Assembly: GCA_934351255.1 (NCBI GenBank)
Contig: CAKRJH010000003.1
Location: 120,588-184,587 of the forward strand
Direction: 5' to 3'
DNA length: 64,000 nucleotides
Source: an uncultured Lachnospiraceae bacterium
Lineage (GTDB): Bacteria; Bacillota; Clostridia; Lachnospirales; Lachnospiraceae
The position numbers and the translations under genes were made by a program. Positions 5,148 to 34,701 of this stretch are shown piece after piece; the stretch's first letter is position 1; the number at the start of each line of letters is the position of its first letter. Under the pieces are notes generated by a model, which saw only the letters and a program-made list of their open reading frames with translations, was not told the origin of the DNA and did not search any database.

Positions 5148-5171
5148 ATTCTGAGATATTCCTTTCTGTTA

Positions 5172-8100: not shown

Positions 8101-8378
8101 GTATAAAATGTCTTAAATCCGTTGTTGACTGCATAATCTGCCCAGCCTACGAAACAGTTCATATCGGTCTCATGACCACGATATACTGCAGCGGCGATCA
8201 GTCTCACCAGAAGACCGGCGCCAAGTACCAGAAGCAGTACCGTCATTCCCAGATTCTCATCGGTATCTGCTCCTTTTTTGCGGACGTCCCTGCGGACCTG
8301 ACCGCCTGCGGTGACCGGTTTGTAGGCCAGCCACATGATCACAGCGGCAATCAGTCCGATCAAGATAATCTTTCCCAT
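5172..8378 (-). CDS. Large polytopic membrane glycosyltransferase with two GT-C-like domains. The C-terminal domain is GT39/PMT-like (phospholipid-carrier-dependent).
   Basis: 1068 aa and very hydrophobic. The C-terminal half carries ...YENTHPPLGKELMAVGV..., diagnostic of PMT/GT39-type GT-C enzymes. The N-terminal half is a second polytopic GT-C-like module (ADYPPGYIYILY...). The antisense + ORFs inside it were ignored. Confidence 0.7.
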   Translation of the reverse strand: MGKIILIGLIAAVIMWLAYKPVTAGGQVRRDVRKKGADTDENLGMTVLLLVLGAGLLVRLIAAAVYRGHETDMNCFVGWADYAVNNGFKTFYTGQGFADYPPGYIYILYVCGALRKLFGCEWGSTMTNVITKLPAILADIGTGYLIYRVASRRFTRVSSSWIAALYLFNPIVILDGAVWGQTDGVFTFFLVWMVYLITRKKLIPSYFVFAVSILIKPQSLMLAPVLILAIIDQVFLEDFNWKKFGINLGLGLAAIGVIGLLMLPFGFSEALKQYTETLGSYEYCSVNAYNFWALIGKNWHAQTETLLGIQARIWGSAFLILTVVASIVFGIRCKKDESKYYYFGAFIYILVFSLSVRMHERYIFPAVVMLLLAYCAKPRKDTYISYMAVSLVAFFNCAYALFFYDATWETIDNGPVKFTALCCVCMVAWFIWNTISGYSKENLETDQVQAAGSQKKNRSGSRSLTRREQQKAQEHQTDRYFKPSAPAVKMLKWDFIMVAVITLVYAVVAFTNLGDMDAPQTEYSSFEQGAITLDFGETVNIDKIWDYLGYQNNYGYSILYTQDPAAGWTALYDGTNGKWDSGSVFKWNDTQISLQTRYLQIAAVDGYRDSLMELAFTDASGNLLEPVNAGDYATLFDEQDLFTGEATKMNGTYFDEIYHGRTAYEMIHKLYCYENTHPPLGKELMAVGVMIFGMCPFGWRFMGTLFGVIMLPFMYLFAKKMFKETWISAITTILFAFDFMHFTQTRIATIDVFVTTFIIISYYFMYCYTQMNFYDTKLSKTFVPLGLCGVAMGLGWASKWTGIYASAGLAVIFFVQMGRRFVEYLQAAKNPKGTTLGISHQEVVDTFIPKFWKTIGFCCIAFVAVPVLIYVLSYIPFNDGTDRTLIQKVIQAQKTMFDYHSKLDAEHPYSSTWWQWPIMYRPMWYYSRVISGTVREGISAFGNPLVWWAGIPAFAYMLYLSIARRDRNAIFLSLGYLSQYAPWFLVTRVVFIYHYFPSVPFVTIMIGYTMFRLVQAHPKWKKYMFIYTALAVGLFIMFYPVISGAPCTVSYAEHFLKWFKSWVLLQTW

Positions 8379-8400
8379 GATGTTCTCTCTCCTTCACTCT

Positions 8401-9315
8401 CTATTGGTCTGATTTTTTCACATGTTGATGCGTGTACAGATGATCTGTACAGTACTCATAATTCCCCTCGCACTTGGAGCAGTACCGGAATTCCAGCGTA
8501 GGATCGTCCAGCTCGGTACGCCCACAGATGGCACAGCGGTGTCTCGCACCTTTGCCCGGCTGTCCCTGGCGCATCTTGCGGCGGAATTCCTGTTTCCTGT
8601 GAATCTCTTTGGGCGAAACCTTCCGGTAGTCCCGGGTCGTGAAAAAGAAGATCAGGAAATTGGCCAGCGCTACAAGGATAGCCACCGCACCGCTGATAAA
8701 TACCGCGCTGTAGCTTGTCCCACGGAACAGGACTGCATAATACAGATACCGGATCACCATGTATCCCAGATACACACCGTCCAGCATCGCAAGCCATTTG
8801 ACTTTGATCGGGATCAGGAACCACAACATCAGCTGAAGATTCGGATTGACCGCGGCAAACGCAAAGAACATGGCCCAGTAGATATACTGGAATCCGGAGG
8901 CATATACACTCACATGTGCCGGACTAAGATACAGGATCAGGCCTGCCAGCACATTAAAAAACCATCCCGCGAGCATATACAGATTGAACCGGAAGGTTCC
9001 CCAGGCACGCTCCAGAGACCGGCCAAACAGCATAAAGAGGTTGACCTGGATCAACAGAAACAGGATCTGGAACACAATGCCGCCCGTGGCCGTCAGCCCG
9101 TACGGCTCGATCAGGAAGGTAAACAGTCTCCAGATCTGCCCGCGAAATACCTTGTTGTAATCCAGGGCCAGAAACGTGTCATAAATGCCCACACTCTGCG
9201 TAGAATCATACAGACCGAGCACCGCTCCCGCCACGTAGACCACCATAACATACCGGATCAGATCCGGTATCGCATATTTGCCAAATTTGCGTTCCAGTTT
9301 ATCGATAAATTTCAT
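8401..9315 (-). CDS. polytopic membrane protein with a C-terminal zinc ribbon
   Basis: Multiple TM segments and C-terminal CAICGRTELDD...CSKCEGNYEYCTDH. The start was taken at MKFIDK (third codon of the track ORF). Confidence 0.5.
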   Translation of the reverse strand: MKFIDKLERKFGKYAIPDLIRYVMVVYVAGAVLGLYDSTQSVGIYDTFLALDYNKVFRGQIWRLFTFLIEPYGLTATGGIVFQILFLLIQVNLFMLFGRSLERAWGTFRFNLYMLAGWFFNVLAGLILYLSPAHVSVYASGFQYIYWAMFFAFAAVNPNLQLMLWFLIPIKVKWLAMLDGVYLGYMVIRYLYYAVLFRGTSYSAVFISGAVAILVALANFLIFFFTTRDYRKVSPKEIHRKQEFRRKMRQGQPGKGARHRCAICGRTELDDPTLEFRYCSKCEGNYEYCTDHLYTHQHVKKSDQ

Positions 9316-9408
9316 ACACACTTGTCCCTTCTTTTTCTAAAAAACATGACATATAGGTATAGAAACCCAATATGTCATGTTATATTATAATGTTGCCTTA
9401 TCTCTTTG

Positions 9409-9672
9409 TCAAACGCGACGGTATACTATGATCTTCTCCCATTTTCCCTGTGCTAATTCCTCCGGAGTCGGTGGATTGTCGGGCTTCTCCGGCTTATTCA
9501 TCTCCGTCTCCGGAACCGGCAGGCAAAGGACATCTCCCGCCTTCATGTTGTAGACATCGATCGTAGGGTTTGCTTTTAACAAGGAAGACAGAGAAATGTT
9601 CTTTTTCACGCTGATCCCATACAGGGTATCTCCCTCCATCACAGTATAACTGGCATATGGACATCTGGCCAT
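9409..9672 (-). CDS. LysM-domain protein
   Basis: YTVMEGDTLYGISVKKNISLSSLLKANP...GDVLCLP is a LysM motif. Confidence 0.6.
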   Translation of the reverse strand: MARCPYASYTVMEGDTLYGISVKKNISLSSLLKANPTIDVYNMKAGDVLCLPVPETEMNKPEKPDNPPTPEELAQGKWEKIIVYRRV

Positions 9673-9813
9673 AACGCGCTCCAATTTCTAAATTATTACT
9701 TAATTCTATTCCATTGCCGTTTATTGGTGATTGCATTGGCCAAAAAATTGTCTTATAATAGGAAAATGTGACGATTTGGGGTCACTGTGTATTCAGAAAG
9801 GATGTACTTACTT

Positions 9814-12800
9814 ATGAAGTTACCATGTCATACTTTAGGAATTGATATCGGATCTACCACAGTTAAAATCGCCATCCTCAACCCGGAGGGCGAGATTATC
9901 TTTTCCGATTATCAGAGACATTATGCCAATATCCAGGAGACATTGGCATCTATTATAAACGACGCTTACCGGGAGCTCGGCGACCTGCCTCTCTCCCCGG
10001 TCATCACCGGTTCCGGCGGACTGGCACTTGCCAAGCATCTGGACATTCCCTTTGTGCAGGAGGTTGTGGCTGTAGCCACCTCCCTGAAAGATTATGCACC
10101 GCGCACCGACGTAGCGATCGAGCTTGGCGGTGAGGATGCAAAGATCATCTACTTTACCGGTGGAATTGACCAGCGTATGAACGGAATCTGTGCCGGAGGT
10201 ACCGGTTCCTTTATCGACCAGATGGCCACGCTGCTCAAGACAGACGCCGCCGGCCTGAATGAATATGCAAAAAACTATAAAATGATCTATCCGATCGCTG
10301 CCCGCTGTGGTGTGTTCGCCAAGACGGATATCCAGCCTCTGATCAATGAGGGTGCGACCCGCGAAGATCTTGCAGCCTCCATTTTCCAGGCGGTGGTCAA
10401 CCAGACGATCTCCGGTCTTGCCTGCGGTAAGCCGATCCGCGGTAATGTCGCATTTCTGGGAGGTCCCCTGCACTTCCTGACCGAGTTAAAACAGGCATTC
10501 ATCCGCACCCTGGATCTGAAGGGTGACGCGATCATTGCCCCGGATCACTCCCATCTGTTTGCGGCATCCGGTGCTGCCATGAATGCAAATCCGGATGAGA
10601 CGATGTCCTCACTGGAAGCACTCCGTGAAAAACTCTCTCACCACATTGAGATCGAGTTTGAGGTGACACGTCTGGAGCCTCTGTTCCGTGATGAACAGGA
10701 ATATCAGGATTTTCTGGCAGATCACTCCAAAAAGGATGTCAAGAAGGGGGATCTTTCCACCTACCGCGGCAACCTGTTCCTGGGTATCGATGCCGGATCC
10801 ACGACCACCAAGATTGCCCTGATCGGTGAAGACGGAACTCTGCTTCACTCCTTCTACGGCAACAACAACGGAAGCCCGCTCAAGACCTCGATCCAGGCGA
10901 TCAAGGACATCTACGCGCGTATTCCGGAGGGCTGTCAGATTGTCCGCTCCTGCTCCACCGGTTATGGTGAGGCTCTGTTAAAATCCGCGCTTCTGCTCGA
11001 CGAGGGCGAAGTCGAGACCGTAGCCCACTACACCGCGGCAGCATTTTTCGAGCCGGATGTAGACTGCATCCTGGATATCGGTGGCCAGGACATGAAATGT
11101 ATCAAGATCAAGAACCACTCCGTCGACAAGGTACAGCTCAATGAAGCCTGTTCCTCCGGCTGTGGTTCCTTTATCGAGACCTTTGCCAAGTCCCTGAACT
11201 ATGAGGTGTCTGATTTTGCCAAGGTAGCTCTGTTTGCCAAGAATCCGATCGACCTGGGTTCACGCTGTACCGTATTTATGAATTCCAAGGTCAAGCAGGC
11301 ACAGAAGGAAGGAGCGACCGTCGCTGATATTTCCGCAGGCCTTGCATACTCTGTCATTAAGAATGCCCTGCTAAAGGTTATCAAGCTCACCGATCCAAAG
11401 GATCTCGGTACGCGCGTGGTAGTACAGGGCGGAACCTTCTACAATGACGCTGTTTTGCGCAGTTTTGAGCGCATCTCAGGATGTACCGCAGTCCGCCCGG
11501 ACATTGCCGGTATCATGGGTGCATTCGGTGCCGCGCTGCTGGCCAGAGACCATTATGAGGGACAGCAGACGACCATGCTGACATTACAGCAGATCAATGA
11601 CCTGAAATATGAATCCAGCATGGCACGCTGCAAGGGCTGTACCAACAACTGTCTGCTGACCATCAACCGCTTTACCGGCGGCCGTCAGTTTATCTCCGGC
11701 AACCGCTGTGAACGCGGACTGGGCAAGCAGAAAAACAAAGACAATATTCCAAATCTGTTTGAATACAAGAACAAACGGCTGTTCCAGCATTACAAACCGC
11801 TGGACGAGGAGCATGCAGTCAGAGGATCTGTGGGTATTCCACGTGTTCTGAATATGTACGAGAACTATCCGTTCTGGTTCACATTCTTTACGGAACTGGG
11901 CTACCGGGTTGTCCTGTCGCCGGTCTCCTCCCGTAAGATCTATGAGCTGGGCATCGAGTCCATCCCAAGCGAGTCCGAGTGTTACCCGGCCAAGCTGGCT
12001 CACGGACATATCACCTGGCTGCTACGTCAGGGACTGGATTACATATTCTACCCATGCATTCCATATGAGCGCACCGAGGTGCCGGACGCCAACAACCACT
12101 ACAACTGTCCGATTGTGACTTCTTATGGAGAAAACATCAAGAATAACGTCGAGGAACTGAAGGATCCTAAGATCAAATATCAGAATCCGTTCCTCTCCCT
12201 GGAATCCGAAAAGATTGCGACCAGCCGTCTGGTGGATTACTTTACCGCAGAGAATGACATCCCAGCCACTGAGATACGCCGCGCCGCAGCACTTGCCTGG
12301 AAAGAGATGGAGAATGCCCGCGAGGATACCCGCAGGAAGGGCGAGGAAGTGCTCGCCTATATGGAGAAGACCGGTCGCCGCGGCATTGTGCTGGCCGGCC
12401 GTCCTTACCATATCGACCCTGAGATCAACCACGGTATTCCGGATCTGATCGCATCCTACGGTGTGGCAGTCCTGACCGAGGACAGCATCTCTCACCTGGG
12501 CGAAGTCGACCGTCCTGCCATCGTCTCAGACCAGTGGATGTACCACTCCCGTCTGTACAAGGCAGCATCCTTTGTCCGTACCAGAGACGATCTGGATCTG
12601 ATCCAGCTCAACTCGTTCGGATGTGGACTGGATGCCGTCACCACGGATCAGGTCAGCGATATCCTGACCAAATCCAACAAGATCTACACGGTACTCAAGA
12701 TCGATGAGGTCAACAACCTTGGAGCAGCCCGCATCCGTATCCGCTCCCTTCTGGCGGCGGTCAAGGAGCGCGAGCGCAAGAACATCAAACCGGTGCAGGC

Positions 12801-14055
12801 GGATACCGCACATCACCGTGTGCTGTTTACCCAGGAGATGCGAAAGGACTATACGATCCTCGTCCCACAGATGTCTCCGATCCATTTCGATATCCTGCAG
12901 CCGGCCATGCGTGCCTGCGGCTATCAGGTCGAGGTCATGCCAAGTGATCCGGAATGTGTGGACTACGGTCTCAAATACGTGAACAATGACGCATGTTACC
13001 CTTCACTGATCGTAGTAGGCCAGTTTATGCGTGCCCTGACTTCCGGCAAGTATGATCTGAACCGAACCGCCCTGATGATCACACAGACCGGCGGTGGCTG
13101 CCGTGCGACCAACTACATCGGCTTCATCCGCCGTGCCCTCGAGAAGGCCGGCATGGGACAGATCCCTGTTATCTCCGTCAGCGCAGGCGTGGAGACCAAC
13201 CCCGGTATGAAATACAGCCTCAAACTCATTCATGCAGCTCTGCAGGCTCTGTATTACGGCGATGTATTTATGCGCGTGCTCTACCGCACCCGTCCTTATG
13301 AGGCGGTACCGGGTTCTGCCAATGCCCTGCATCAGAAGTGGTTAAAGATCTGTCAGGATGCCGTAACCCATCCAAACAAGGCACAGTTCAAGAAAAATGT
13401 GCGCCAGATCGTCCGCGAATTCGATGAACTTCCTCTGCGCGAGGATGTCCGCAAGCCGAGAGTCGGCATTGTCGGAGAGATCCTGGTCAAGTTCATGCCG
13501 CTTGCCAACAACTATCTGGTAGAGCTGCTGGAAGCAGAGGGTGCTGAGGCCGTCTGTCCGGATCTGATGGACTTTATGATGTACAGCCTGTACAATGCCA
13601 ACTTTAAGGCAGAGTACCTCGGCAAAAAGAAGTCCTCCGCAAAGATCAACAATCTGCTGATCTCCTATCTGGAGAATTACCGGAAAGCAGCCAATGACGC
13701 CTTTGCCGCAAGCAAACGCTTTGAGCCGACGACTCCGATCTCCAAGCTGGCCGAATATGCAGATCCGATCGTCTGCGCCGGCAATCAGACCGGTGAGGGA
13801 TGGTTCCTGACCGGTGAGATGGTCGAGCTGATCCACTCCGGTGTGCCAAACATCGTGTGTGCTCAGCCATTCGGATGTCTGCCAAACCACGTCGTAGGTA
13901 AGGGTGTTATCAAGGAGCTGCGCAACCGCTATCCGGATTCCAACATTGTAGCCGTAGACTACGATCCGGGTGCCAGCGAGGTCAACCAGCTGAACCGTAT
14001 CAAACTGATGCTTTCCACCGCGGTCAAGAATCTGAATGAACCGGTGGATGCCTGA
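9814..14055 (+). CDS. Acyl-CoA dehydratase activase-related fusion protein (2 x BadF/BadG/BcrA/BcrD ATPase and 2 x HgdB-like DUF2229 domains)
   Basis: [15 protein letters not shown] at the N-terminus and a second [15 protein letters not shown] copy further in (each with CAGGTGSF or CSSGCGSF) mark two activase ATPase domains. The long intervening and C-terminal regions are cysteine-containing. Total about 1410 aa. ATG 9814 was chosen (SD AAAGGA 11 nt upstream). The track ORF starts at GTG 9787. Confidence 0.8.
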
Positions 14056-18110: not shown

Positions 18111-18905
18111 TTACAATGTGATAAGAGTGGAGAGGTCGTCGCGTCTGGCTACCTCCATCTCAAAAGGAAGCTTTTTCAGCCCCAGTTCCTCCCAGAGCTG
18201 GCATTTTACGGATTCATATGCCAGTTCCGGATAGTTGTTTTCCTTGGACAGATGTGCCAGGAAAGTATATTTCAGCGGACTGTCTGCCAGACGGCTGAGC
18301 AGTCTGCCGGAATCCTCATTGGAAAGATGCCCCCGGTCGCCCAGAATGCGCTGCTTGAGCGGATACGGATACGGACCGGTCTCCAGCATACTGATATCGT
18401 GGTTGGCCTCCAGGAACAGAACCTCACTGCCCATCAGATGATCGACAATGTAATCGTCAAATTTGCCAAGATCCGTCGCAATGCTCATCTTTTTCCTGCC
18501 ACAGTGCACACTGTAGCACACCGGATCCATCGCATCATGATAGGAATGAAACGGCAGAATGTCCAGACTGCCCATCGTAATCTCCTGATCCGGATACAAC
18601 TGGTAGAGATGATCCATGCGGATCACTCCTTTCTTGTCCTTCTGACGGATGGCATCCAGCGTCCCGGCCGTCGCATAGACCGGAATATCAAACATTTTGA
18701 CCAGCATCGGAATCCCCTGGATATGATCGCTGTGCTCATGTGTCACAAAAATGCCGTCCAGATCCTCGGGTCTGACTCCCAGTCTGGCCAGGCCATCCAC
18801 AATCCTCTTGCGGCTGATTCCGGCATCGATCAGGATATGATGTTTTCCGTCTCCCACATAGAGACAGTTTCCGCTGCTGCCACTGGCAAGGCTACAAATT
18901 CTCAT
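18111..18905 (-). CDS. MBL-fold metallo-hydrolase (YycJ/WalJ-like)
   Basis: MRICSLASGSSGNCLYV...HEHSDHIQG metallo-beta-lactamase motifs. The start was taken at ATG 18905. Confidence 0.8.
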   Translation of the reverse strand: MRICSLASGSSGNCLYVGDGKHHILIDAGISRKRIVDGLARLGVRPEDLDGIFVTHEHSDHIQGIPMLVKMFDIPVYATAGTLDAIRQKDKKGVIRMDHLYQLYPDQEITMGSLDILPFHSYHDAMDPVCYSVHCGRKKMSIATDLGKFDDYIVDHLMGSEVLFLEANHDISMLETGPYPYPLKQRILGDRGHLSNEDSGRLLSRLADSPLKYTFLAHLSKENNYPELAYESVKCQLWEELGLKKLPFEMEVARRDDLSTLITL

Positions 18906-19128
18906 GTATTTCAACCACTTTCTCTCATAAGTTACAAACATAGGTATCATACCATAAAAACACGAAAATAAAAAGACCGCCACGGGAGAATCTCCCGCAA
19001 CGGTCTTATGTAATAGAGAAAAGAGTAAGCTGTTATCGGCATTGCTGCCTCAAGTCTCAGATATGTTCTTGTTTATGTTAGATAAATCATAGCACATTAT
19101 AGTCATTTTGTCAATAAAATCATGAATT

Positions 19129-24526: not shown

Positions 24527-24547
24527 AAGCTGAAAAAGGGACTTGAA
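24527..24547. repeat. 21-bp direct repeat of the tRNA-Thr 3' end (att-like); the second copy is at 25323-25343
   Basis: aagctgaaaaagggacttgaa is identical at both positions. The flanking bases differ. Confidence 0.7.
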
Positions 24548-24568: not shown

Positions 24569-24826
24569 TTAAACATTGACTGCCTCCCTCATTTTCGCAA
24601 ACATCTCCTCATGGGTATAGCGTTCTGTGATCTCTTCTGCCATCCTATCCGCAACATCTAATGCATCCTCAACAGATTCCGTCAGCTTTGAGTATGCCTC
24701 AATGCTCATGACTACCATTGATCCATATCCGTTTTTCGTCAAATATACAGGTTCACCGTTTTTTACAGTGGTCTCGATTTCCGTAAACTTATTTCTCAAA
24801 TCTGAAACAGGTCTAATCTCTATCAT
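24569..24826 (-). CDS. Phd/YefM-family antitoxin-like protein (orphan; no adjacent toxin gene seen)
   Basis: MIEIRPVSDLRNKFTEIETTVKNGEPVYLTKNGYGSMVVMSIEAYSKL. ATG 24826 has SD AAGGAGGAG 5 nt upstream. Confidence 0.55.
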   Translation of the reverse strand: MIEIRPVSDLRNKFTEIETTVKNGEPVYLTKNGYGSMVVMSIEAYSKLTESVEDALDVADRMAEEITERYTHEEMFAKMREAVNV

Positions 24827-25100
24827 AAGCTCCTCCTTATCATAATTTTGATAAAATTGTGCCATCCTTATTATATACAACTTATCGAAAATTAGCAACC
24901 GATGTTCAGGACAATCTCATAAAGAATCAACACTGTCAAAAAACGTCCCTCGACTTTAAGAAGAAAAAGACAGACCATATTTGCTATTTCTCAGTGTGAG
25001 CATTTCCTGTTCTGTAAACTTTCTGTTTGCCATAATTTCCTCCAATTCATTTTTATTGTAATATCAATCTGAATCGGAGTCAAAAAAGCGATTTTGTCCA

Positions 25101-25260
25101 AAATAAAGGGGTTCATCAAAACCATGTCCGAATTTAAGGGTTCCCTGTAAACTCATTGTCTAGATTTAAGGGTTTTCATTAAAACTTACTGTCCAATGGT
25201 AAGGGTTTTAAAAACTCAAACTGTCTAATCTATAGGGTACATTTTACTGCACTCTATCAG
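25101..25260. repeat. five iteron-like direct repeats of about 32 bp, consensus a.ttTAAGGGTTt....aaac..a.TGTCy
   Basis: Cores recur at about 25105, 25134, 25166, 25199 and 25231, each followed by ...TGTC(C/T). The block is non-coding and lies between the tRNA and the antitoxin-like gene. Confidence 0.55.
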
Positions 25261-25316: not shown

Positions 25317-25323
25317 TATCGAA

Positions 25324-25396
25324 GCTGAAAAAGGGACTTGAACCCTCGACCCCTTCATTACGAGTGAAGTGCTCTACCAACTGAGCTATTTCAGCA
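25324..25396 (-). tRNA. tRNA-Thr (anticodon CGT)
   Basis: The reverse complement folds as a cloverleaf: GCTGAAA-TA-GCTC-AGTTGGTA-GAGC-A-CTTCA-CTCGTAA-TGAAG-GGGTC-GAGGG-TTCAAGT-CCCTT-TTTCAGC-T. The anticodon loop has CGT. Confidence 0.85.
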
Positions 25397-25542: not shown

Positions 25543-25992
25543 TTAACATTTATCAAATGCTTCTTGAAAAATAACATTTAAAGCATCATAAAATGCATGC
25601 TCTTCTTTTTGATTTTTAGGTCCCAAAAGAGCTTTTCCAAGAACACCCATCTGCCGAGTTGATACTTCTCTTCTCCAGTTTTTGCTGTCTCCGATCATAT
25701 ATTGTGTCAAATAACAACCATTTTCATTATTGTCTAATGCAAACGCATATCCATAATAATCGTTCATATGCATCGTATTATATATTGTAATACATGGATA
25801 CACTCTTCCAAAAAGTCCTTTTTTCTTACATTCATCTTTGGTAATCGTTAAATTAATTCCATTCAGCTCTGCCAAGTCCGATATAATCTGTGCAAACAAA
25901 TCTAATGAAAAATCACCTCGACAAAATAATGGATTACCACAAATTCTTTCATCTAATACTTTAATCATTTTTTCTTTCGATGTATAAAACAT
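25543..25992 (-). CDS. hypothetical small protein, candidate immunity protein for the upstream nuclease
   Basis: 149-aa ORF directly downstream of the nuclease-like gene (toxin then immunity order). No family recognised. Confidence 0.4.
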   Translation of the reverse strand: MFYTSKEKMIKVLDERICGNPLFCRGDFSLDLFAQIISDLAELNGINLTITKDECKKKGLFGRVYPCITIYNTMHMNDYYGYAFALDNNENGCYLTQYMIGDSKNWRREVSTRQMGVLGKALLGPKNQKEEHAFYDALNVIFQEAFDKC

Positions 25993-26198
25993 CTGCTCCT
26001 TTCTACATAATATACAAGTTCAGGTTAGATAACGTATTTCCTCCTTTCTGTAGCTTTGTTAAATTTATCGTCTGTTCAAACGATATTTATCCTCATAAAA
26101 TGCCATTCCTATTTGGGCACTCTTACAAGCATCTGAATCTCAATATTCCGGATTTCCGTAAAGTAAATCCAATTCTGGTGAACAAACATCGCAATAAT

Positions 26199-26651
26199 TT
26201 ATATATCGTCTGCTTCTTCCGAAAGTTCAAACTCTTCTTCATTTAGATTTTCATTTGTTAAAGAAAAAACTTCTTCTTGTTTTTGACCTCTTTGATCTGT
26301 AATCGTATAGCGTCCCATTATTGCATGTGGACGCTTCGTATTATCCTGATAATACGGTTCAATTTCGACATGTACTTCATTACCGCGCTCTAATTCATCA
26401 GCCCAGGTGTTTTCAAATGTTTTATATGCACTCCGGTTTATAAAACGATTCTGTGCAATCAAATTATTTAATTCACCACTTCCACCAAAGCGGCTGCCGA
26501 TCAAATGTCCTCCATCGTCTGTATCACGCCGAAATTCACCTCCTGCTTTTAATTGAGCAGAAGTATCTCTTACCCCCTGTTCCAAGCGCAAATCTCCCTC
26601 CGCCAAAATAATTCTTCCCTCATCATCTTTTTCATATGAATATCCATTCAT
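26199..26651 (-). CDS. small HNH/EndoVII-superfamily (GH-E-like) nuclease toxin-domain protein. It may be the C-terminal part of a frameshift fusion with the upstream acidic ORF.
   Basis: ...DDGGHLIGSRFGGSGELNNLIAQNRFINRSAYKTFENTWADELE... resembles polymorphic-toxin nuclease domains. There is no SD before its ATG. The ORF continues in frame upstream for 12 codons, up to the in-frame stop at 26688-26690; that stretch includes the A-run. Confidence 0.5.
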   Translation of the reverse strand: MNGYSYEKDDEGRIILAEGDLRLEQGVRDTSAQLKAGGEFRRDTDDGGHLIGSRFGGSGELNNLIAQNRFINRSAYKTFENTWADELERGNEVHVEIEPYYQDNTKRPHAIMGRYTITDQRGQKQEEVFSLTNENLNEEEFELSEEADDI

Positions 26652-26662
26652 TTCATATGAAT

Positions 26663-26992
26663 TTATCTCGTCTTTTTTTTTACATACTCATAAACCTCTG
26701 GATCTTCATCTTCCCCCATCTCCTCCCACTCATCAAGCATTTGATTTAATTCATCAGAAATATCTTGTTCTTCATAATCTTCTCTGACATCGGGTTCCAT
26801 ATCTCCTACATCTTCATAGTCCTCTGAAATGTCGACTTCATCAGGGTAATATTCTGCAACTTCATCATAGTCAATATCACTTGCATCATACTCCACATCT
26901 TTAACACCAAGCATATCATCCAACACAGGGGTATCTGCAATATCACTACCGATATCATCAACATATTCCATATCACAACTCATATCATCCAT
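26663..26992 (-). CDS. highly acidic (about 45% D/E) small protein; its 3' end contains a dnaX-type -1 frameshift heptamer
   Basis: MDDMSCDMEYVDDIGSDIADTPVLDD...EDPEVYEYVKKKTR. ATG 26992 overlaps the ATPase stop by 8 nt. It ends with GTA AAA AAA AAG ACG AGA TAA. Confidence 0.5.
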   Translation of the reverse strand: MDDMSCDMEYVDDIGSDIADTPVLDDMLGVKDVEYDASDIDYDEVAEYYPDEVDISEDYEDVGDMEPDVREDYEEQDISDELNQMLDEWEEMGEDEDPEVYEYVKKKTR

Positions 26993-29648
26993 TTTTCTCA
27001 CCGCCTTTTACAAACAGAGTAATCAGTTTAATTTTTTCCTTATCATCCATTTTATATAATTTGTCATTCAACTGAAGTTTTCGAAACAATTTAATCCTTA
27101 CACAAATAATAAATTCCCGATCATTCCTATACCCCATCGCTGCTATTTTTTTTGCAAAAAGTGATGGAATACTTAAAAACACACCTCGAATTGTTCTTTT
27201 TTTATCTGCATTCTTATATAACGCATCAGCACAAACTGCATAGGCCTCGCTAGAAATATATTCTGCATCTGCCTTGATTCTAAAATTACAACCATCACCA
27301 TATAATCCACACAGATAACACTCTTTATATGGACATAACAATTTTTGCTTATTATCCCAGTAATGCATCAATTTTCTAATCAAATCATTGTCTATGCTTA
27401 ATTTAATTTGTTTCTTTTCTCTTATATCCTCCGTCATCACAAGCTGCGGTTTATTAAATGCTGTAGAATAAACATACGCTTCACCAACTTGCAAACCGGA
27501 GAGAGTTTCTTCCATTTCTGCATCCATATTGGTACTGTTAGCAATCAGTCTTCGTTCTGATGCCTCCACAAGCCGAAACATAATTTTTGTATCTGTGGCA
27601 GCAATGATATCATGAGTCACTTTTGACGGTGATTGATCCGCAATAATAACCCCCGTTCCATACGCCCTGATTTCTTTAAGCATCCTCTGTAATGAACTCA
27701 CTGTTGATGATCCTGCAGAAATATCCGAATTATCCCCTCTTCCTTCCGGAGATAACAGAACATGTGCCTCATCAATCATCAAAACATTTTTGAGTCTGGT
27801 TCCTATACTTGAACTATTTATCTTGGTATATGCGCAAACATCAACCAACAATAACGCCATTATTAATGCTTTTTGCTCCATGTTTTCTATGGAATTCAGT
27901 TCTATAATGGTCGGTCTTGAAATTAAATCTTCAATAGGTATGGTATTGATTGAATCATAAATATTGCTATTCATATCAATTAAATTCATCAATCGCATAA
28001 CACCTGCTGTTTCCAAATTTGATTTTACATCCTTGCTATAATTTGATGTTTGAAGCAATTTCTTAAACACTAAAATAAATTCGTGTAAACCAAATATAGT
28101 AACATCCTTGTCATCAGATGTACTATAATCCTTCCACCCGTATTTCGTATAGCATCGTTGAATGGCGTTTTGGAATAATAAATCTAATGGTGATGGCATA
28201 GAAAAAGCAGCCATAAATGCACTTACCAAAACAGGTTTATATTGCTCCACCGTAATTCCTTTCAATGGAATAAACGGATTAATAATAAATGGAGAAACAC
28301 TAACATTTCCCGGTGTAAAAATTTGTATATCCGGTAGTTGTTCTATTAATGCTCTATACTCTGTCTTAGTCGGTTCGACAATCAAAAACGGAATATTTCT
28401 TTCAGCAAATTGCAACATCAAATTAATAGAAAAGGTTGTTTTACCAGTTCCTGGCATGCCAACAATCAATACATGCTTTGACAGTATTCTTTCGTTACAA
28501 CCAATAGTAATCTTTTTCAGATCTGATGATATTAATTGTCCAAACTTTATATTAGAATCACTAATAATCTCTTCTTTTAACTGTTCTCTTTGCTTTTTAT
28601 ATCTGGTTTCCTCAATACCTGACATATTTCCATCGTAAACCGGCAAACGAAAAAAAGAAATCAATTCTTCGATCGTCATCATCAGCGGAAGTCGATACAA
28701 ATAATTGGAGAGTGGAATGTATTTACGAATTTTCATATTTCTATATTTGTACATTAATAAGGCACTTACGTTCCATATATAATTCGGAAATTCATTGATT
28801 ATGCTGCCAATACTTTTTGATATATCAATACAACTCGCTTCAAAACTACCGATATTACTGTCTCCACCTTTTAAAAGGCTGATAATTTTGGCAGATAAAA
28901 CAGTACAATCTTCTTTGGTTCCAAAAACCAATAAATTGGATAAAAACATAGGTGCATCCCGATTATCTTTATAATAAGATAATACTTCAAACGGTTCCTG
29001 AGCACATGAATCCTTTAAAAGTTGTCCATTAACAGATATTCCTTTTGATAATCCCTCCAGTTCAGAACAATGTTGTACTAATATTGCGATTTCATTCTCA
29101 TACAATTTTGTTGGTAGTATACTAAACGAAACACCGCAATTCTCCATCTGACTCAAAGTATTGATCAGAGATGCCAACCCCTCAGTATTATTTGATGGAA
29201 TAATCTCAGTATAATAAAATGGACAGACACTGGATGGATTAATAACCACCTTTTCCTTTTTTTCTACAGCATATACCAAACTTTTAACATCCTGTCTCCA
29301 AAGATCATCGAACGTTTGACGGCAATGTTCTGAATCTTGACAAAAATATCCAAAATCCGATACTACATTTTGAATGTTATTTATAAGCATTTTTACACGC
29401 GATACTGCTTCTGCGCTTACGTTGTCTATCTTTCGTACAACAATATAAATATGGATTTTCGAGGCATATGATTGATTATCAACTTTCTCGGTCAACCAAA
29501 TGATTTCATAAGCAACATTCTGATTATCAAGTCTATACAACTCTCCTAAAACACTATCAAAATCTGAAATTGTGTCTGAGAAAGTAACAATTTCCAGCAT
29601 ATCAACTGCCAAGAAACGATTGTCTGCTAATTCATACACCTGTACCAT
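26985..29648 (-). CDS. FtsK/HerA/VirB4-type P-loop ATPase (DUF87-like), 887 aa, with a Cys-rich C-terminus
   Basis: Walker A VGMPGTGKTT followed by FLIVEPTKTEY (HerA-like DP.GEY). Walker B VLMIDEAHVLL. IIADQSPSKV matches the TQRP-like motif. The C-terminus carries CPYKECYLCGLYGDGCNF. Confidence 0.7.
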   Translation of the reverse strand: MVQVYELADNRFLAVDMLEIVTFSDTISDFDSVLGELYRLDNQNVAYEIIWLTEKVDNQSYASKIHIYIVVRKIDNVSAEAVSRVKMLINNIQNVVSDFGYFCQDSEHCRQTFDDLWRQDVKSLVYAVEKKEKVVINPSSVCPFYYTEIIPSNNTEGLASLINTLSQMENCGVSFSILPTKLYENEIAILVQHCSELEGLSKGISVNGQLLKDSCAQEPFEVLSYYKDNRDAPMFLSNLLVFGTKEDCTVLSAKIISLLKGGDSNIGSFEASCIDISKSIGSIINEFPNYIWNVSALLMYKYRNMKIRKYIPLSNYLYRLPLMMTIEELISFFRLPVYDGNMSGIEETRYKKQREQLKEEIISDSNIKFGQLISSDLKKITIGCNERILSKHVLIVGMPGTGKTTFSINLMLQFAERNIPFLIVEPTKTEYRALIEQLPDIQIFTPGNVSVSPFIINPFIPLKGITVEQYKPVLVSAFMAAFSMPSPLDLLFQNAIQRCYTKYGWKDYSTSDDKDVTIFGLHEFILVFKKLLQTSNYSKDVKSNLETAGVMRLMNLIDMNSNIYDSINTIPIEDLISRPTIIELNSIENMEQKALIMALLLVDVCAYTKINSSSIGTRLKNVLMIDEAHVLLSPEGRGDNSDISAGSSTVSSLQRMLKEIRAYGTGVIIADQSPSKVTHDIIAATDTKIMFRLVEASERRLIANSTNMDAEMEETLSGLQVGEAYVYSTAFNKPQLVMTEDIREKKQIKLSIDNDLIRKLMHYWDNKQKLLCPYKECYLCGLYGDGCNFRIKADAEYISSEAYAVCADALYKNADKKRTIRGVFLSIPSLFAKKIAAMGYRNDREFIICVRIKLFRKLQLNDKLYKMDDKEKIKLITLFVKGGEKNG

Positions 29649-29654
29649 ACTTTA

Positions 29655-31358
29655 TTAACCTCTCAATCCCTGTATATAATCATCTAATTCGCTTATTTTA
29701 TTTACGCATGTTTCATACGTTTCTTTTTGTTTTTCCAAATCAGCAATAAAAGACTCAAGCACCTGCTTTTTTAAGGCAATAGCATCATAATTTTTTTGTT
29801 CTTTCTGCAACGCTGTCTTTTTTGTGAGCGCTTCAATATGCCAAACAACACCACGATAAAAAATTCCCCATAGAATAAAGATTACTACACCTGTGAACAC
29901 ACCATCCATTATGCTTTCTGTAACGCAGATATACAACACCCAAACTATACATGCTATAAATGACAATCTGAAATCATGAGGTTTCGATAATTTCTTTATT
30001 TTAGGTTTCAGTTCGTTCAGTTGCAACTGCAACATTTTAGTTTCTTCCCTTTTCTGGCTAATCTCCGGCGATACATCACTATATCCTGCAATCTGATCTT
30101 GATAATACTTTTTCTCCTCTTCTGCTTCACCTATTTTCAGTCGCTTATTCTGCTCCTGCAGTCTTCTTATATAGTCTTTCCACTCCTCCTGTATCATTTT
30201 CGCCTTATCTGGATTTGCAACAGTGATTGCATGTTGTACCATATTTTGCATCTCAGAAGCCAACTCATTGTCCAAATGGGTTAAACACTCACTTTGTACA
30301 TAGGGTACTCCCCACCATCCACGATAATCTTCCGGATACCTATTTTGCATTTCAACATATAATTCATATGCTTTTTGCGTTTCATTCAGTTTCATAAAAG
30401 TTTCCGCATTGGCTGCTAAACGGTTCACCTCAGATGTTTCTTCATTTGAGAGAATCCCGGTCTTTCTTTTGTTGTTTTGTATGACGTTGTTAACACCCTC
30501 TACCAGATATTCCACATAGCCTATTTTGTTCAGATCAAAAGATTGAAATGCCGAAAATTCCATTGGCATTTCATACGGAGACATATTTTTAAAGCAAGCA
30601 ATCAGTGTTTTGTCTTTATTTTCTTTCTTTAGTTCCAAAAAACGAGACCATTCATTCTTTACCCAGGTAGAATTATAATATTCCGTTTTAGTTCCCAGAA
30701 CAATCATTACCGTTGCACTCATCAATGCAGCATATATGTACGGTTCATACTCTTGTCCAAGCTTACTTTCCAATGATTTTTTTGCAAAAAATGTACGGTA
30801 TCCCGCCTGCTCTAACGAATTATAAATATTATATGCTATCATGCTGTCTTCTGTTGGCTCTCCATTTTCCATCTTATCTTTGTAACAGATAAAGACATCA
30901 TATGGCTTCTCTTCTTTTACAATTTTAATATACTTATTATAAATCTCGTCAATTTTGGTCGCTTCTTCTTGAAAAACATAAGATTCGTATATATCTGCAT
31001 TTTGCAACGCTGCTTTATAATCCGGATCATCAAAAATAGAATGATCCTGTATTCTATGACATGTCGGTTTCCTTTCTCCCCCAATATCATTTACATACTC
31101 AATACCATATCGGCTTAAAACCATTCCCCAATGAGCCGCTGAATCTTTATGATCTTCTCGAAGTAAATCATCAAAAACAGATATTGCACCATCAAAATCC
31201 AGATTTTGTCTTAAAAACGTAGCACGATTAAATAAATTTTCTATTTTGTCCTTATTTTGGGATACAATCATTTTTGAATCACAATACTTGCATGTTGCTA
31301 TTGAAGTACTTTCATCAAAATCGATATTCGCTCCACACACTTCACACTTTAATATCAT
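29655..31358 (-). CDS. zinc-ribbon TIR-domain protein with a coiled-coil region and two C-terminal TM helices
   Basis: N-terminal CEVCGAN...CKYCDS zinc ribbon. TIR core YDVFICYKD ... ALMSATVMIVLGTKTEYYNSTWVKNEWSRFLEL, in which WVKNE corresponds to the catalytic WxxxE. Two TM helices (LSFIACIVWVLYICV, GVVIFILWGIFY) lie near the C-terminus. SD GGGAGGT. Confidence 0.7.
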   Translation of the reverse strand: MILKCEVCGANIDFDESTSIATCKYCDSKMIVSQNKDKIENLFNRATFLRQNLDFDGAISVFDDLLREDHKDSAAHWGMVLSRYGIEYVNDIGGERKPTCHRIQDHSIFDDPDYKAALQNADIYESYVFQEEATKIDEIYNKYIKIVKEEKPYDVFICYKDKMENGEPTEDSMIAYNIYNSLEQAGYRTFFAKKSLESKLGQEYEPYIYAALMSATVMIVLGTKTEYYNSTWVKNEWSRFLELKKENKDKTLIACFKNMSPYEMPMEFSAFQSFDLNKIGYVEYLVEGVNNVIQNNKRKTGILSNEETSEVNRLAANAETFMKLNETQKAYELYVEMQNRYPEDYRGWWGVPYVQSECLTHLDNELASEMQNMVQHAITVANPDKAKMIQEEWKDYIRRLQEQNKRLKIGEAEEEKKYYQDQIAGYSDVSPEISQKREETKMLQLQLNELKPKIKKLSKPHDFRLSFIACIVWVLYICVTESIMDGVFTGVVIFILWGIFYRGVVWHIEALTKKTALQKEQKNYDAIALKKQVLESFIADLEKQKETYETCVNKISELDDYIQGLRG

Positions 31359-31373
31359 CAGTACCTCCCATTA

Positions 31374-32627
31374 TTATAAATCCTTTAATTTTTCTCGTTC
31401 AATTTTGAACTCCTCGTCAGTGTATAACCCTTCCTGCCAAGCCATTTTCAAACGTTTTAACCGTTTCATATACTCTTCATCATCAATATGATGCTTTTCA
31501 TTGCATGTATTTTCTACTGATGTTTTCAAATGAACCATTCCCGGTATATCATCACCATCCTCGTTGCCATCGCTAGGGGTTACATTTATATTTGCACTAT
31601 CCTTCTCTGTAATCGGTGTCATTAGACTACTTCCTTGAATTTCATTTCCAAAACTACTCATTGTCTGGCTAATAAACGGTGCCATCCCCATTCCCATTCC
31701 AACTCCCATCATGGGTGCACTACTTCTTCCAATGCCTTCATTAGCTGCCGCAATATCCATCACCCCAAATCCTCTTCGCTGATGTTCCGTCATATTAAGA
31801 GTTTTATTAGCAATACTTTGAGCGATTGCATCGCGTTTTTTTATTTCCTCATCTGCTATATGCTCCGTAATTCTGACATTTGCATTGATTGCAGCTTCTT
31901 TTATCCGATTTTTTTCTTCCATATTCAAGAAAGTATTTTGGGACCATAAATGTTTATACATTTGATAATTAGGATCAGCATCAGATGCATTGATATTATT
32001 CACGTATAGATCCACCAACGCTATTCCGTATTCAAACATATAACTGGAAATTGCCTTTTTAAGCTGTTCTGCAATTCCCATTGGATTACTCTCAAGATTA
32101 AAAATCGACGTATTTTCTTCTCTTAAAATTGCGGGAAGCCATTGTTTGATGCATGAAATGATGATTCCTTTAAAATATCTCATCATATGTTCCTGATCGA
32201 ATTGTGTTTCCGTCCCAACCAACTTCAATAATATTTTTTTTGAATCCACTACTTTGATACTCATTTCACCGGACGTGCTAATAGAAAATGGCGGCAAATT
32301 CATGCTTGGATCACTATATTTTATATCTCCAACACCCCAATTAATTGCCATTTGCTCCGTCTTGTTTACAAAATATACTTCACAATGAAATGGTGATATT
32401 CCATCACTCGGCAAATTGATCAGTTTGTTTAAAATAGGTATATTTTTAGTCTGTAACTTATATGATCCTGGTTGAAAGATATCTGTCAACTGACCATCTT
32501 TAAAAAAAGCTGCCTCTTGTGTTTCATGTACAATTAAGGTTGAATGAGTATTAAAATCTTCTCCTGGAAACTTCCATACAAATGTTCTATTATTTATTTC
32601 ACCCTTTATTATGTCAAATATTTGCAT
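31374..32627 (-). CDS. SPFH/band-7 domain protein (YdjI-like) with a C-terminal SHOCT-like domain
   Basis: MQIFDIIKGEINNRTFVWKFPGEDFNTHSTLIVHETQEAAFFKDGQLTDIFQPGSYKLQTKNIPILNKL is the YdjI-type SPFH N-terminus. The C-terminal EEYMKRLKRLKMAWQEGLYTDEEFKIEREKL is SHOCT-like. ATG 32627 has SD GGGAGGG. Confidence 0.7.
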   Translation of the reverse strand: MQIFDIIKGEINNRTFVWKFPGEDFNTHSTLIVHETQEAAFFKDGQLTDIFQPGSYKLQTKNIPILNKLINLPSDGISPFHCEVYFVNKTEQMAINWGVGDIKYSDPSMNLPPFSISTSGEMSIKVVDSKKILLKLVGTETQFDQEHMMRYFKGIIISCIKQWLPAILREENTSIFNLESNPMGIAEQLKKAISSYMFEYGIALVDLYVNNINASDADPNYQMYKHLWSQNTFLNMEEKNRIKEAAINANVRITEHIADEEIKKRDAIAQSIANKTLNMTEHQRRGFGVMDIAAANEGIGRSSAPMMGVGMGMGMAPFISQTMSSFGNEIQGSSLMTPITEKDSANINVTPSDGNEDGDDIPGMVHLKTSVENTCNEKHHIDDEEYMKRLKRLKMAWQEGLYTDEEFKIEREKLKDL

Positions 32628-32637
32628 ATGTCCCTCC

Positions 32638-33228
32638 CTAATAGTTTTCACTATCAACAGTTAATTTTTCAATTCTTGATCCATTGATATCATGATTCTC
32701 TGTCATAAATATTGTAATCATCTCAGAATCTGCTTTCGACTCAATAAAGACTTTCCCATCCGCTCCATTCGGATCATTAGCCGTTTCCGATTTAAAACTT
32801 AATGATGCAATAAAATCATCCATTGATGTATACCCATTAAGTTGTAAAAAAAGTTCAATTACCTCTCCTGAATAATCAGAATCTACGATATCCCCAAAAT
32901 TGGATAACTCTACGGTTGTGCTTTTCATTGCTCCTCCACTTCTTTGAGCCAGACAAGAAACAATGTCTGTTGTTATGCTACTTAATATCTCTCTATCCAT
33001 ATACATATTATTCAATTCATCATACTCTTCATTGTCACCATAAATGTCATTATAAAGATTACTATTTATTTGTTGGTTTGCAATGTTTTGTCCTGAATCA
33101 TTGGTTTGAGTAGATCTACGAGATATAATGATTCCTGTTATTACAATTGCAGTGCACAATAAAATTGCTGCTCCTAAAATAGCAAGTACAATAATTTTAA
33201 TATTATTTTTCTCTTTCATTTTTTCCAT
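32638..33228 (-). CDS. membrane-anchored hypothetical protein (N-terminal TM then hydrophilic domain), first gene of the island operon
   Basis: MEKMKEKNNIKIIVLAILGAAILLCTAIVITGIIIS, then an Asn/Asp-rich soluble region. Confidence 0.45.
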   Translation of the reverse strand: MEKMKEKNNIKIIVLAILGAAILLCTAIVITGIIISRRSTQTNDSGQNIANQQINSNLYNDIYGDNEEYDELNNMYMDREILSSITTDIVSCLAQRSGGAMKSTTVELSNFGDIVDSDYSGEVIELFLQLNGYTSMDDFIASLSFKSETANDPNGADGKVFIESKADSEMITIFMTENHDINGSRIEKLTVDSENY

Positions 33229-33343
33229 TTCCTTTCTATTCTTTGTATCTTTATATTTAAAACCACATAATGATTATTATGGTTTTAGAAACAAAAAAAC
33301 TCCCCATAAAAACAATAGGAAGAAAATGAAAAAGCCAAATTAG

Positions 33344-33571: not shown

Positions 33572-34471
33572 TCAGCAAAAACACTGCGTTCTATCCATAT
33601 AATAATCATTATGTAGATTTCCATCATCCACAAGCAAATTCATGTTCTCAAGTTGTTTTCGATGTTCATTATAGGATTCTTTAAGATAAATTCTTGTTGT
33701 CTCTATACTACTATGTCCCAAAATATCCGCAAGTTTAGCAATGTCCCTATATAAGGAATAAAATGTTCTTGCAAACAAATGACGCAGATTATGTGGGAAT
33801 ACCTTATCCTGGTCTATTCCGGCATCACTACAAAGCTTTTTCATTTCACGCCATATCCATGTGCGGTCAACTGCATTTCCTCTTGATGTTTGAAACACCA
33901 TGCCTTTCTTTATACTCTGTACTCGAATATAGCACAGCAAACGAACCTGTAAATCTCTGGGAATTAGTACCTGCCGCTCTTTTCCCTTATTATATATAGT
34001 GACCATCCCCTTTTTTACAGACGTAATCGTAATTGCAGATAACTCACTCACTCGAATCCCTGTTGCACATATTGTTTGTATAATCATACCCAGTCGAACT
34101 TTTCCGCTATCCATAGCTGTTTTCACTAACTTCATATATTCCTTCTTTGATAATTCTCTGTTTTCCGGCACAAACACTTCTTTTTGCAATTTAAATGTTT
34201 TGACTCTAAGTTCATACCATCCTAAAAACTCGAAAAAACGATTTGCTGCAACCAAAAAAGAATTAATACTGCTTGTTTTATAATCTGCATTCATACGCAA
34301 ATGTTCTTTATACTGAATCACGAGCATTTTATCCAATTCTCTATTATCCGCAAATTCCACTAACTTTTTTATATCACACATATATTTTTGTATAGTAGCC
34401 TTACTTTTTTCTTGTTCATACAAATATATTTTATAATCTTCTAACATTTTCTCTGTAATAATCTTTTTCAT
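33572..34471 (-). CDS. tyrosine site-specific recombinase/integrase (XerC/XerD-like)
   Basis: Catalytic-motif candidates ATGIRVSEL (R), HNLRH (H-x-x-R) and HSSIETTRIYL (H...Y). ATG 34471 has SD GGAGGT 8 nt upstream. AT-rich like the rest of the island. Confidence 0.8.
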   Translation of the reverse strand: MKKIITEKMLEDYKIYLYEQEKSKATIQKYMCDIKKLVEFADNRELDKMLVIQYKEHLRMNADYKTSSINSFLVAANRFFEFLGWYELRVKTFKLQKEVFVPENRELSKKEYMKLVKTAMDSGKVRLGMIIQTICATGIRVSELSAITITSVKKGMVTIYNKGKERQVLIPRDLQVRLLCYIRVQSIKKGMVFQTSRGNAVDRTWIWREMKKLCSDAGIDQDKVFPHNLRHLFARTFYSLYRDIAKLADILGHSSIETTRIYLKESYNEHRKQLENMNLLVDDGNLHNDYYMDRTQCFC

Positions 34472-34701
34472 AATGTAGTACCTCCAGTCCCCTAAAAATG
34501 GGAAAAAAATAACCATTTGAAACTTAATCCAAATGGCTTATGTAAATTTACTAATATTTTATTAAAAGCAGATAGATATGCAAGTCCATTTTATGAATAA
34601 TAAATACGAAGGAACACTAGCAAGCCTTTAACGTTGTTACTCATCATTTACACCTTCTATACGATAAGAAATCTTTCCACCAATAAGGCCAGACACATTT
34701 C

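Follow-up and report, generated by a model that had tools for sequence, protein, structure and literature searches.

ATPases of the HerA/FtsK superfamily have repeatedly been captured by anti-invader systems (PMC10853773), and in these published cases the partners are a D5 helicase or Orc/Cdc6 plus a restriction endonuclease, not SPFH or TIR proteins. In the Sir2-HerA and DUF4297-HerA systems (Gao 'Her', Nezha), such an ATPase stands beside an NAD-cleaving or nuclease effector. For bacterial TIR proteins, a 2025 survey described two-gene Thoeris types, and its text contains no ATPase, SPFH, HerA or zinc ribbon. Band-7 proteins with zinc-ribbon and transmembrane (TM) partners build sub-membrane assemblies (PMC11237479), and the Band_7_1 family includes YdjI of Bacillus subtilis, which tethers PspA together with zinc-ribbon and TM proteins (PMC8581546; PMC11237479). 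Here we analysed a 64,000-nt stretch of DNA from an uncultured Lachnospiraceae bacterium (contig CAKRJH010000003.1), called the window throughout; coordinates are window positions unless another locus is named. At 26199-33228 it carries a cassette of six tightly packed genes, all on the minus strand. The core of this cassette is an SPFH protein, a zinc-ribbon protein (often with a TIR domain), a motor ATPase and a hyper-acidic partner, and the gene set matches no described system in PADLOC, NCBIfam or the literature searched.

Gene content of the cassette compared with described systems

The six genes were resolved by open reading frame (ORF) calling and Pfam searches. The initial annotation had counted seven packed genes on this strand; the packing was confirmed and the number was corrected to six, as a 149-aa ORF lies outside the span. 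In the direction of transcription the genes are as follows:

32638..33228, minus strand: 196-aa protein (193 aa by database gene calls) with one TM helix at the N-terminus and an acidic domain at the C-terminus
31374..32657, minus strand: SPFH protein (Band_7_1, E 7.3e-38, 130.7 bits against a cut-off of 24)
29655..31358, minus strand: zinc-ribbon-TPR-TIR-2TM protein, 567 aa (TIR_2, E 1.8e-13)
26985..29648, minus strand: P-loop motor ATPase, 887 aa (DUF87, E 1.6e-9)
26663..27001, minus strand: hyper-acidic protein, 112 aa from a GTG start or 109 aa from an ATG at 26992 (assigned by composition)
26199..26651, minus strand: Endonuclea_NS_2 DNase, 150 aa (Pfam, E 1e-28)

Depending on the start codons chosen, the successive junctions are a 10-nt gap or a 20-nt overlap, +15, +6, -8 or -17, and +11 nt, and the acidic gene overlaps the stop codon of the ATPase gene. 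The domains that had been proposed for these proteins (SPFH, TIR with a catalytic glutamate, P-loop ATPase of the FtsK/HerA superfamily, acidic protein and nuclease) were all supported.

The SPFH protein likely starts at the ATG at 32627, which gives 417 aa. It had been annotated as SPFH-SHOCT, and the SPFH part is secured by Band_7_1, but the C-terminus resembles SHOCT by eye only, the Pfam SHOCT match being weak in homologues and non-significant in the window copy. Its PDB sequence search was empty or insignificant. The protein is a conserved core component and is predicted to act as a membrane-microdomain scaffold. As in PspA-YdjGHI of B. subtilis, a Band_7_1 SPFH protein is encoded with zinc-ribbon and membrane proteins and is predicted to form a sub-membrane platform; unlike PspA-YdjGHI, the cassette has a VirB4-like ATPase and enzymatic effectors, and PspA was not found in the window locus or in the related loci examined.

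The TIR protein begins with a zinc ribbon (CxxC...CxxC at residues 5-26, formed by C5, C8, C23 and C26), followed by a weak TPR match, TIR_2 at residues 155-277, a helical region and a hydrophobic 2-TM hairpin at about residues 461-508 (TM prediction). The initial annotation had allowed that the TIR-like region might fail TIR models, and it scored 51.4 bits against a cut-off of 28. The WxxxE motif is intact (W232 and E236, the predicted catalytic glutamate), and its WVKNE aligns with WCLDE, the catalytic motif of plant RUN1. YDxFxxYK and WV[KR]NEW were kept in 22 of the 22 aligned homologues carrying both TIR motifs, and in the gene family occupying the position 5' of the ATPase the zinc-ribbon cysteines hardly vary. 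We predict that this protein is a membrane-anchored NADase effector. TIR_2 was found in 22 of 39 members of the zinc-ribbon family; TPR, LRR_5, ankyrin, DUF6273 or RCC1 repeats are also present in some members, and TIR paralogues stand in tandem in several loci. A topology like that of Toll-like receptors (extracellular LRR, TM segment, cytoplasmic TIR) was considered and rejected, because the TIR homologues that bear LRR or ankyrin repeats have no TM segment. The cassette shares with Thoeris a bacterial TIR with a catalytic glutamate and, in some loci, several TIR paralogues. It differs from Thoeris in that no ThsA-type or other known signal-binding effector (SLOG-Sir2, Macro-TM) is present, and the TIR protein gave no PADLOC match to ThsB and only 25.5 bits against a cut-off of 220 for ThcB4.

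The motor ATPase has three parts, an N-terminal domain (residues 1 to ~345), a P-loop core (~365-750) and a helical C-terminal domain. The core is of the HerA/VirB4/DndH type, with Walker A G397MPGTGKT (397-404, K403) and Walker B D626-E627, and the Walker motifs together with ~170 positions are invariant across 34 homologues. The enzyme had been called HerA-like, and in the strict sense this name had to be given up: structure prediction of the N-terminus did not yield the HAS-barrel that was looked for, and the N-terminal domain is modelled as VirB4/TrwK-type. By sequence models the C-terminal half of the P-loop core alone comes near HerA. PADLOC searches returned HerA (6e-19), mad8 (7e-24) and DndH (2e-15), and the PADLOC/HerA matches of hidden Markov models were limited to residues ~616-744 and far below their cut-offs. 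In NCBIfam, CedD/HerA models gave 50-85 bits against cut-offs of 600-970 (HerA_antiphage 54 against 800, HerA_Thermprot 60 against 800), and the PDB search matched HerA 4d2i at 8e-9.

The initial annotation had also named a true VirB4 within a type IV secretion system (T4SS) as an outcome that would overturn it. This holds at the level of the fold, as the VirB4 architecture of a VirB4-type N-domain and a C-terminal P-loop domain is present, but it holds neither for sequence models nor for T4SS genes. AAA_10 reached 15.5 bits against 27.5, and no CagE_TrbE_VirB match and no NCBIfam VirB4/TraC model was obtained. Unlike VirB4/TrwK of T4SS, the cassette has no VirB3/6/8, VirD4, relaxase or hydrolase in the island and +/-10 kb, its ATPase has an extra Cys-rich C-terminal domain, and the partners are SPFH, TIR and acidic proteins. 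When 139 proteins flanking related loci were ranked by Pfam family, the 25 commonest families likewise included none of a T4SS. The enzyme is best named a VirB4-architecture ATPase of the HerA/FtsK superfamily. Its C-terminal helical domain (~772-887; 26985-27330) has the family consensus CxxCxxCxxxC plus one further invariant cysteine, represented in the window by C772, C777, C780, Y783 and C787, and this cluster could be a metal or Fe-S site.

Like Sir2-HerA and DUF4297-HerA, the cassette would place a hexameric FtsK/HerA-superfamily ATPase beside an NAD-cleaving or nuclease effector, and the C-terminal half of its ATPase aligns with their HerAs (PDB 8xau, 9c1m, 8j4u). By analogy, an ATPase that scaffolds and gates effectors may be a logic common to both. 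In contrast to these systems, the ATPase of the cassette lacks a HAS-barrel and has an N-domain modelled as VirB4-type, its effector is a membrane-anchored TIR protein, no cassette protein has a Sir2 or DUF4297 domain, and SPFH, zinc-ribbon and hyper-acidic proteins are extra obligatory partners. For DndH and mad8 of MADS, the ATPase core alone matches (DndH profile 1323-1639; mad8 17-303 of 314), and the cassette has no DndH N-terminal domains, DndF/G, other mad genes or methyltransferase. Across PADLOC v2 no cassette protein was matched but the ATPase core, which was also the result for a long-form representative (see below); in NCBIfam (2026) nothing exceeded the cut-off, with domain-level matches to the ATPase core and the TIR domain only; and the literature searched described no system of SPFH, TIR and HerA/VirB4-like proteins. 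The earlier statement that no described system of this composition was known is upheld by these searches.

The hyper-acidic protein has 45 D/E and 8 K/R in 112 residues. Its family shares the N-terminal motif M-x-D-E-[FY]-D, and the stand-alone forms share the C-terminal motif ML.EWEE...QKV..KT..R; the acidic proteins form a true family, and the partner is a core component. It occurs alone or fused to a putative peptidase or an Endonuclea_NS_2 domain, and in about one-third of loci it stands alone without a toxin domain. One 400-aa protein (locus L021) is an acidic-nuclease fusion whose C-terminus is 45% identical to the window nuclease, and because fusions of this type exist, the window, with its separate acidic and nuclease genes, can be read as carrying an acidic-effector fusion in split form. 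The window nuclease has an intact DDGGH49 motif and is predicted to be a second, optional effector. Its nearest solved relative is the nuclease domain of the Staphylococcus aureus type VII secretion system (T7SS) toxin EssD/EsaD (PDB 8guo, E 3.5e-19). Apart from this homologous domain, the two differ: the window nuclease is 150 aa long and has no LXG/WXG domain, the locus has no EssC, T7SS or EsaG/DUF600 genes, and the partner of the nuclease is a hyper-acidic region, to which it is fused in L021.

Distribution, two forms and mobility of the cassette

The ATPase matched 1,774 clusters at E <= 1e-30 in a library of 1.84 billion representatives, and hundreds of its relatives are full-length (~890 aa) with ~45% identity. 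Gene neighbourhoods were examined for three distant homologues and for 79 loci in species-representative genomes, and the core set was found in ~60 species-level genomes across several phyla, so the co-occurrence elsewhere that the initial annotation had proposed to check was confirmed. The loci came mainly from Clostridia, with some from Coriobacteriia (Actinobacteria), Bifidobacterium, Treponema, Bacteroidales and Chloroflexi. The recurrent operon consists of SPFH, often a ~230-aa protein with four TM segments (4-TM), a protein that starts with a zinc ribbon, the ATPase and the hyper-acidic protein. An SPFH gene shared the operon of the ATPase in no fewer than 39 of the 48 loci with enough upstream sequence, and the gene next to the ATPase on its 3' side was hyper-acidic in 44 or more of 58 loci; both counts, made from crude gene calls, are lower bounds.

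Two forms of the operon were distinguished. The short form, to which the window belongs, contains SPFH, the zinc-ribbon-TIR protein, the ATPase and the acidic protein. The long form, for example in Hungatella hathewayi WAL-18680, has a 664-aa zinc-ribbon helical protein in place of TIR. Its additional genes encode small proteins, three coiled-coil 2-TM paralogues, a classical AAA ATPase that resembles IetA and a protein whose N-terminus is acidic and which weakly matches the metallopeptidase family DUF6782. Examples of the long form are L054 (5864-22443) and L056 (H. hathewayi WAL-18680, NZ_JH379027 823620-846112), where the operon has at least 12 genes; it includes a 4-TM protein with an RYSDPMS motif, and almost no member has a Pfam or PADLOC match. 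In one short-form locus (L009), a gene of the HSP70 family lies between the SPFH and 4-TM genes and a TatD DNase gene lies downstream (4176-5423, 12217-13425).

The effectors vary at fixed slots and include TIR, HNH/WHH/Colicin-DNase, Endonuclea_NS_2 (EsaD-like), TatD, which was added in one locus, and a putative metallopeptidase. In three loci the arrangement is reversed, and the gene just 5' of the ATPase encodes a WHH/Colicin-DNase protein whose C-terminal tail, of 400 aa, is acidic.

An identical locus was found on 21 human-gut metagenome contigs. In addition, window positions 26192-32635 are 94% DNA-identical to a contig of Clostridium sp. AM49-4BH (L015), and 26196-33255 are 91.5% DNA-identical to a Lachnospiraceae metagenome-assembled genome (L016). 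The similarity to both ends at the block borders and the flanks are unrelated, with rnfC, for example, beside the cassette in L015. Because this block stands in two other species at 92-94% DNA identity between unrelated flanks, the 7-kb cassette moves between species as a unit, and because the block borders match the span first proposed, these coordinates are the borders of the transferable cassette. The same locus on 21 contigs and the block shared with two other species also mean that the gene arrangement is not due to chance. The 196-aa TM protein (hydrophobic segment at residues 7-39; no Pfam, PADLOC, NCBIfam or significant PDB match) is inside the 91.5%-identical block of L016 and missing from L015, and it is an accessory part of the cassette common to this closest relative only.

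In L015, which is a cultured isolate (NZ_QUFB01000009), the TIR gene is split into three ORFs of 81, 121 and 372 aa (8315-9994), and the rest of its cassette is 94% identical to that of the window. The split gene may be a pseudogene, perhaps reflecting a cost of TIR, or a sequencing error.

No relatives were found on IMG/VR viral contigs, and the phage database gave two weak, unannotated matches alone. Plasmids gave distant matches to the ATPase core alone, and the best of them, Priestia pN447-3.1, was in a different context.

Proposed role and rival explanations

A conflict system is argued for by the intact motifs of TIR (E236), Walker A/B and nuclease (DDGGH), by effectors that differ at fixed slots, by TIR proteins that, like immune sensors, are fused to repeats (TPR, LRR, ankyrin or RCC1) and form tandem paralogues, and by the transfer of the cassette between species as a unit. 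Since the TIR protein is predicted to be cytoplasmic and membrane-anchored, its activity would be directed at the cell itself. The tight operon with translational overlap of the ATPase and acidic genes, the low-GC island with a recombinase next to a tRNA, the conservation of the core in so many species of several phyla, and the published capture of HerA/FtsK ATPases by anti-invader systems (PMC10853773) point the same way, and some related loci adjoin AbiE, SoFic, PDC candidates or type I restriction-modification genes. We therefore give roughly even chances to the proposal that the cassette is a mobile, membrane-associated conflict system of a previously undescribed family, likeliest an abortive-infection defence against phage or other invading DNA. 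The view of the initial annotation, that TIR, ATPase and SPFH form an undescribed system, survives, the conserved hyper-acidic partner now joins the core, and the role in defence is one that we infer.

The domains, catalytic motifs, gene linkage, mobility and effector swapping were observed as described above, and every functional step has to be inferred from them. The VirB4-type N-domain would let the ATPase hexamer dock on the inside of the membrane, and the docking site would be the 2-TM hairpin of the zinc-ribbon-TIR protein, as with VirB4 on VirB3, within an SPFH microdomain. The acidic partner may be a polyanionic, DNA-mimicking ligand that occupies the motor, masks the EsaD-like DNase or does both, which would keep the system silent. 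The trigger could be foreign DNA that engages the motor, or another infection cue read by the TPR, LRR or ankyrin parts of the zinc-ribbon proteins, and it would lead to ATP-dependent displacement of the acidic partner. The DNase would then be freed and the TIR domains would cluster into an active NADase, and the infected cell, losing NAD+ and suffering DNA damage, would stop growing or die.

Several points weigh against a defence function. The 196-aa TM protein and the DNase are not conserved beyond close relatives, and the long form holds many extra membrane and AAA proteins without an assigned role. Related loci mostly have housekeeping genes around them, and of 139 flanking proteins sampled only about 5 match known defence models (AbiE, SoFic, PDC-S01, PDC-S31 and mad3 in PADLOC, with one flanking protein each), so the defence-island signal is weak. 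The motor architecture, as modelled, is that of a secretion or conjugation ATPase, and among solved structures the DNase comes closest to a secreted antibacterial toxin. None of the parts of the cassette was identified as a dedicated sensor or trigger. IMG/VR viral contigs also gave no relatives. An empty-site allele was not found when the exact neighbouring GH95 protein was traced, the island being present on 19 of 19 contigs.

We also put forward, tentatively, a broader proposal that spans both killing of the infected cell and toxin translocation. A T4SS-derived VirB4-like motor, working outside conjugation and together with SPFH, might define a new class of membrane-resident conflict machine that is widespread in gut Firmicutes. 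In such a machine, acidic DNA-mimics could be the plug or the substrate of a DNA-pump-type ATPase that gates swap-in effectors (TIR NADase, EsaD-like DNase, HNH, metallopeptidase).

The main rival of the defence proposal is a machine for toxin export and interbacterial antagonism, which we regard as rather unlikely. Here the VirB4-like motor, anchored by TM-hairpin proteins in the SPFH microdomain, would export effectors that carry or travel with a hyper-acidic, DNA-mimicking leader, and the leader would double as an intracellular inhibitor or chaperone; the cargo would be the EsaD-like DNase in the window and metallopeptidase fusions elsewhere. WHH/Colicin-DNase and Endonuclea_NS_2 are classic polymorphic-toxin domains, as this explanation would expect, and the homology of the nuclease to the secreted T7SS toxin EssD, the acidic regions fused to effector domains beside the ATPase, the small, immunity-gene-like genes that follow the peptidase fusions and the weak association with defence islands are also in its favour. 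However, the TIR and zinc-ribbon proteins are predicted to be cytoplasmic and membrane-anchored and so not exportable, and in about one-third of loci the acidic protein stands alone without a toxin domain. The effectors show little diversity and their conservation lies in the C-terminal part, which is the reverse of what polymorphic toxins show. The window cassette also has no polytopic channel, cell-wall hydrolase, coupling protein or recognisable immunity gene (EsaG/DUF600).

An improbable explanation is a membrane-stress or remodelling module of the PspA-YdjGHI type, in which sub-membrane complexes of SPFH, zinc-ribbon and TM proteins plus ATPases would serve envelope maintenance and TIR and nuclease would be incidental cargo. 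The membership of the PspA tether YdjI in Band_7_1 (PMC8581546; PMC11237479) would fit such a module, as would the classical AAA ATPase and the several coiled-coil 2-TM proteins of the long form and the often housekeeping flanks, but PspA was not found in the window, the catalytic motif of TIR has been conserved, fixed slots hold exchangeable nucleases and peptidases, and a cassette that moves as a unit from species to species is better read as a selfish or conflict module than as a housekeeping one. A decayed conjugative element, with the ATPase as a leftover VirB4 and its neighbours as unrelated island cargo, is close to refuted, because in spite of the VirB4-type two-domain fold and the recombinase and tRNA on the island, the same gene set and order occur in ~60 genomes without T4SS genes, the Walker motifs and ~170 positions have stayed invariant in the 34 homologues, VirB4 sequence models remain below threshold, and conjugative plasmids have no relatives beyond distant ATPase-core matches.

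If the cassette is a defence system, the immune repertoire would gain an SPFH scaffold, a VirB4-architecture motor outside secretion systems and a conserved hyper-acidic partner; TIR/NAD+ immunity would be linked to membrane microdomains, and the capture of a conjugation ATPase for immune use would have a concrete example. Should the cassette export toxins instead, it would give monoderm bacteria a new route of secretion. The cassette occurs in human-gut Clostridia, a group in which few defence systems have been tested.

Island setting and neighbouring genes

The AT-rich, tRNA-adjacent island of the initial annotation was confirmed. GC content is 0.30-0.37 over 25-35 kb, compared with 0.47-0.55 in the flanks, and the island (33% GC) lies between a tyrosine recombinase gene and a tRNA gene, both of which are outside the block common to L015 and L016:

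25323..25395, minus strand: tRNA-Thr(CGT), at the island border (ARAGORN; Rfam tRNA 72.5 bits)
33572..34516, minus strand: tyrosine recombinase, at the far island end (Phage_integrase E 3.6e-22; XerA-like 5e-42, below cut-off)

The Rfam scan gave this tRNA as its sole match. A promoter scan was not above the shuffled expectation, and the count of terminator-like structures was about twice the shuffle mean, yet within 2 standard deviations.

Around the 9.4-kb island, no att-type direct repeats were found except a 21-nt repeat of the tRNA, which flanks a separate remnant of ~800 bp. This perfect direct repeat of the tRNA-Thr 3' end (24527-24547 and 25322-25342) encloses an orphan Phd/YefM antitoxin gene, a truncated small ORF and three repeats of ~30 nt (24569-24898, 25095-25183). 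The ~800-bp stretch resembles a decayed element that had integrated at the 3' end of the tRNA; the cassette, on the 5' side of the tRNA, is distinct from it. At the other end, a 22-nt inverted repeat with 91% complementarity (33259-33280 / 33599-33620) spans the region from the end of the shared cassette to the 3' end of the recombinase gene.

The 149-aa ORF mentioned above lies at 25543-25992, 206 nt beyond the nuclease gene, and is probably unrelated to the cassette. It was considered as an immunity gene for the nuclease and set aside, since it is missing from L015 and in L016 follows PqqD and radical-SAM/SPASM genes. This pair (L016 13518-15574) resembles maturases of ribosomally synthesised and post-translationally modified peptides, and the window has neither gene; the ORF may thus be what is left of a peptide-modification cluster that lay nearby. 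Further away, in the chromosomal flank, a protein with a metallo-beta-lactamase fold is encoded at about 18112-18984 and has a precomputed Pfam match to Anti-Pycsar_Apyc1 (L001 20665-21537).

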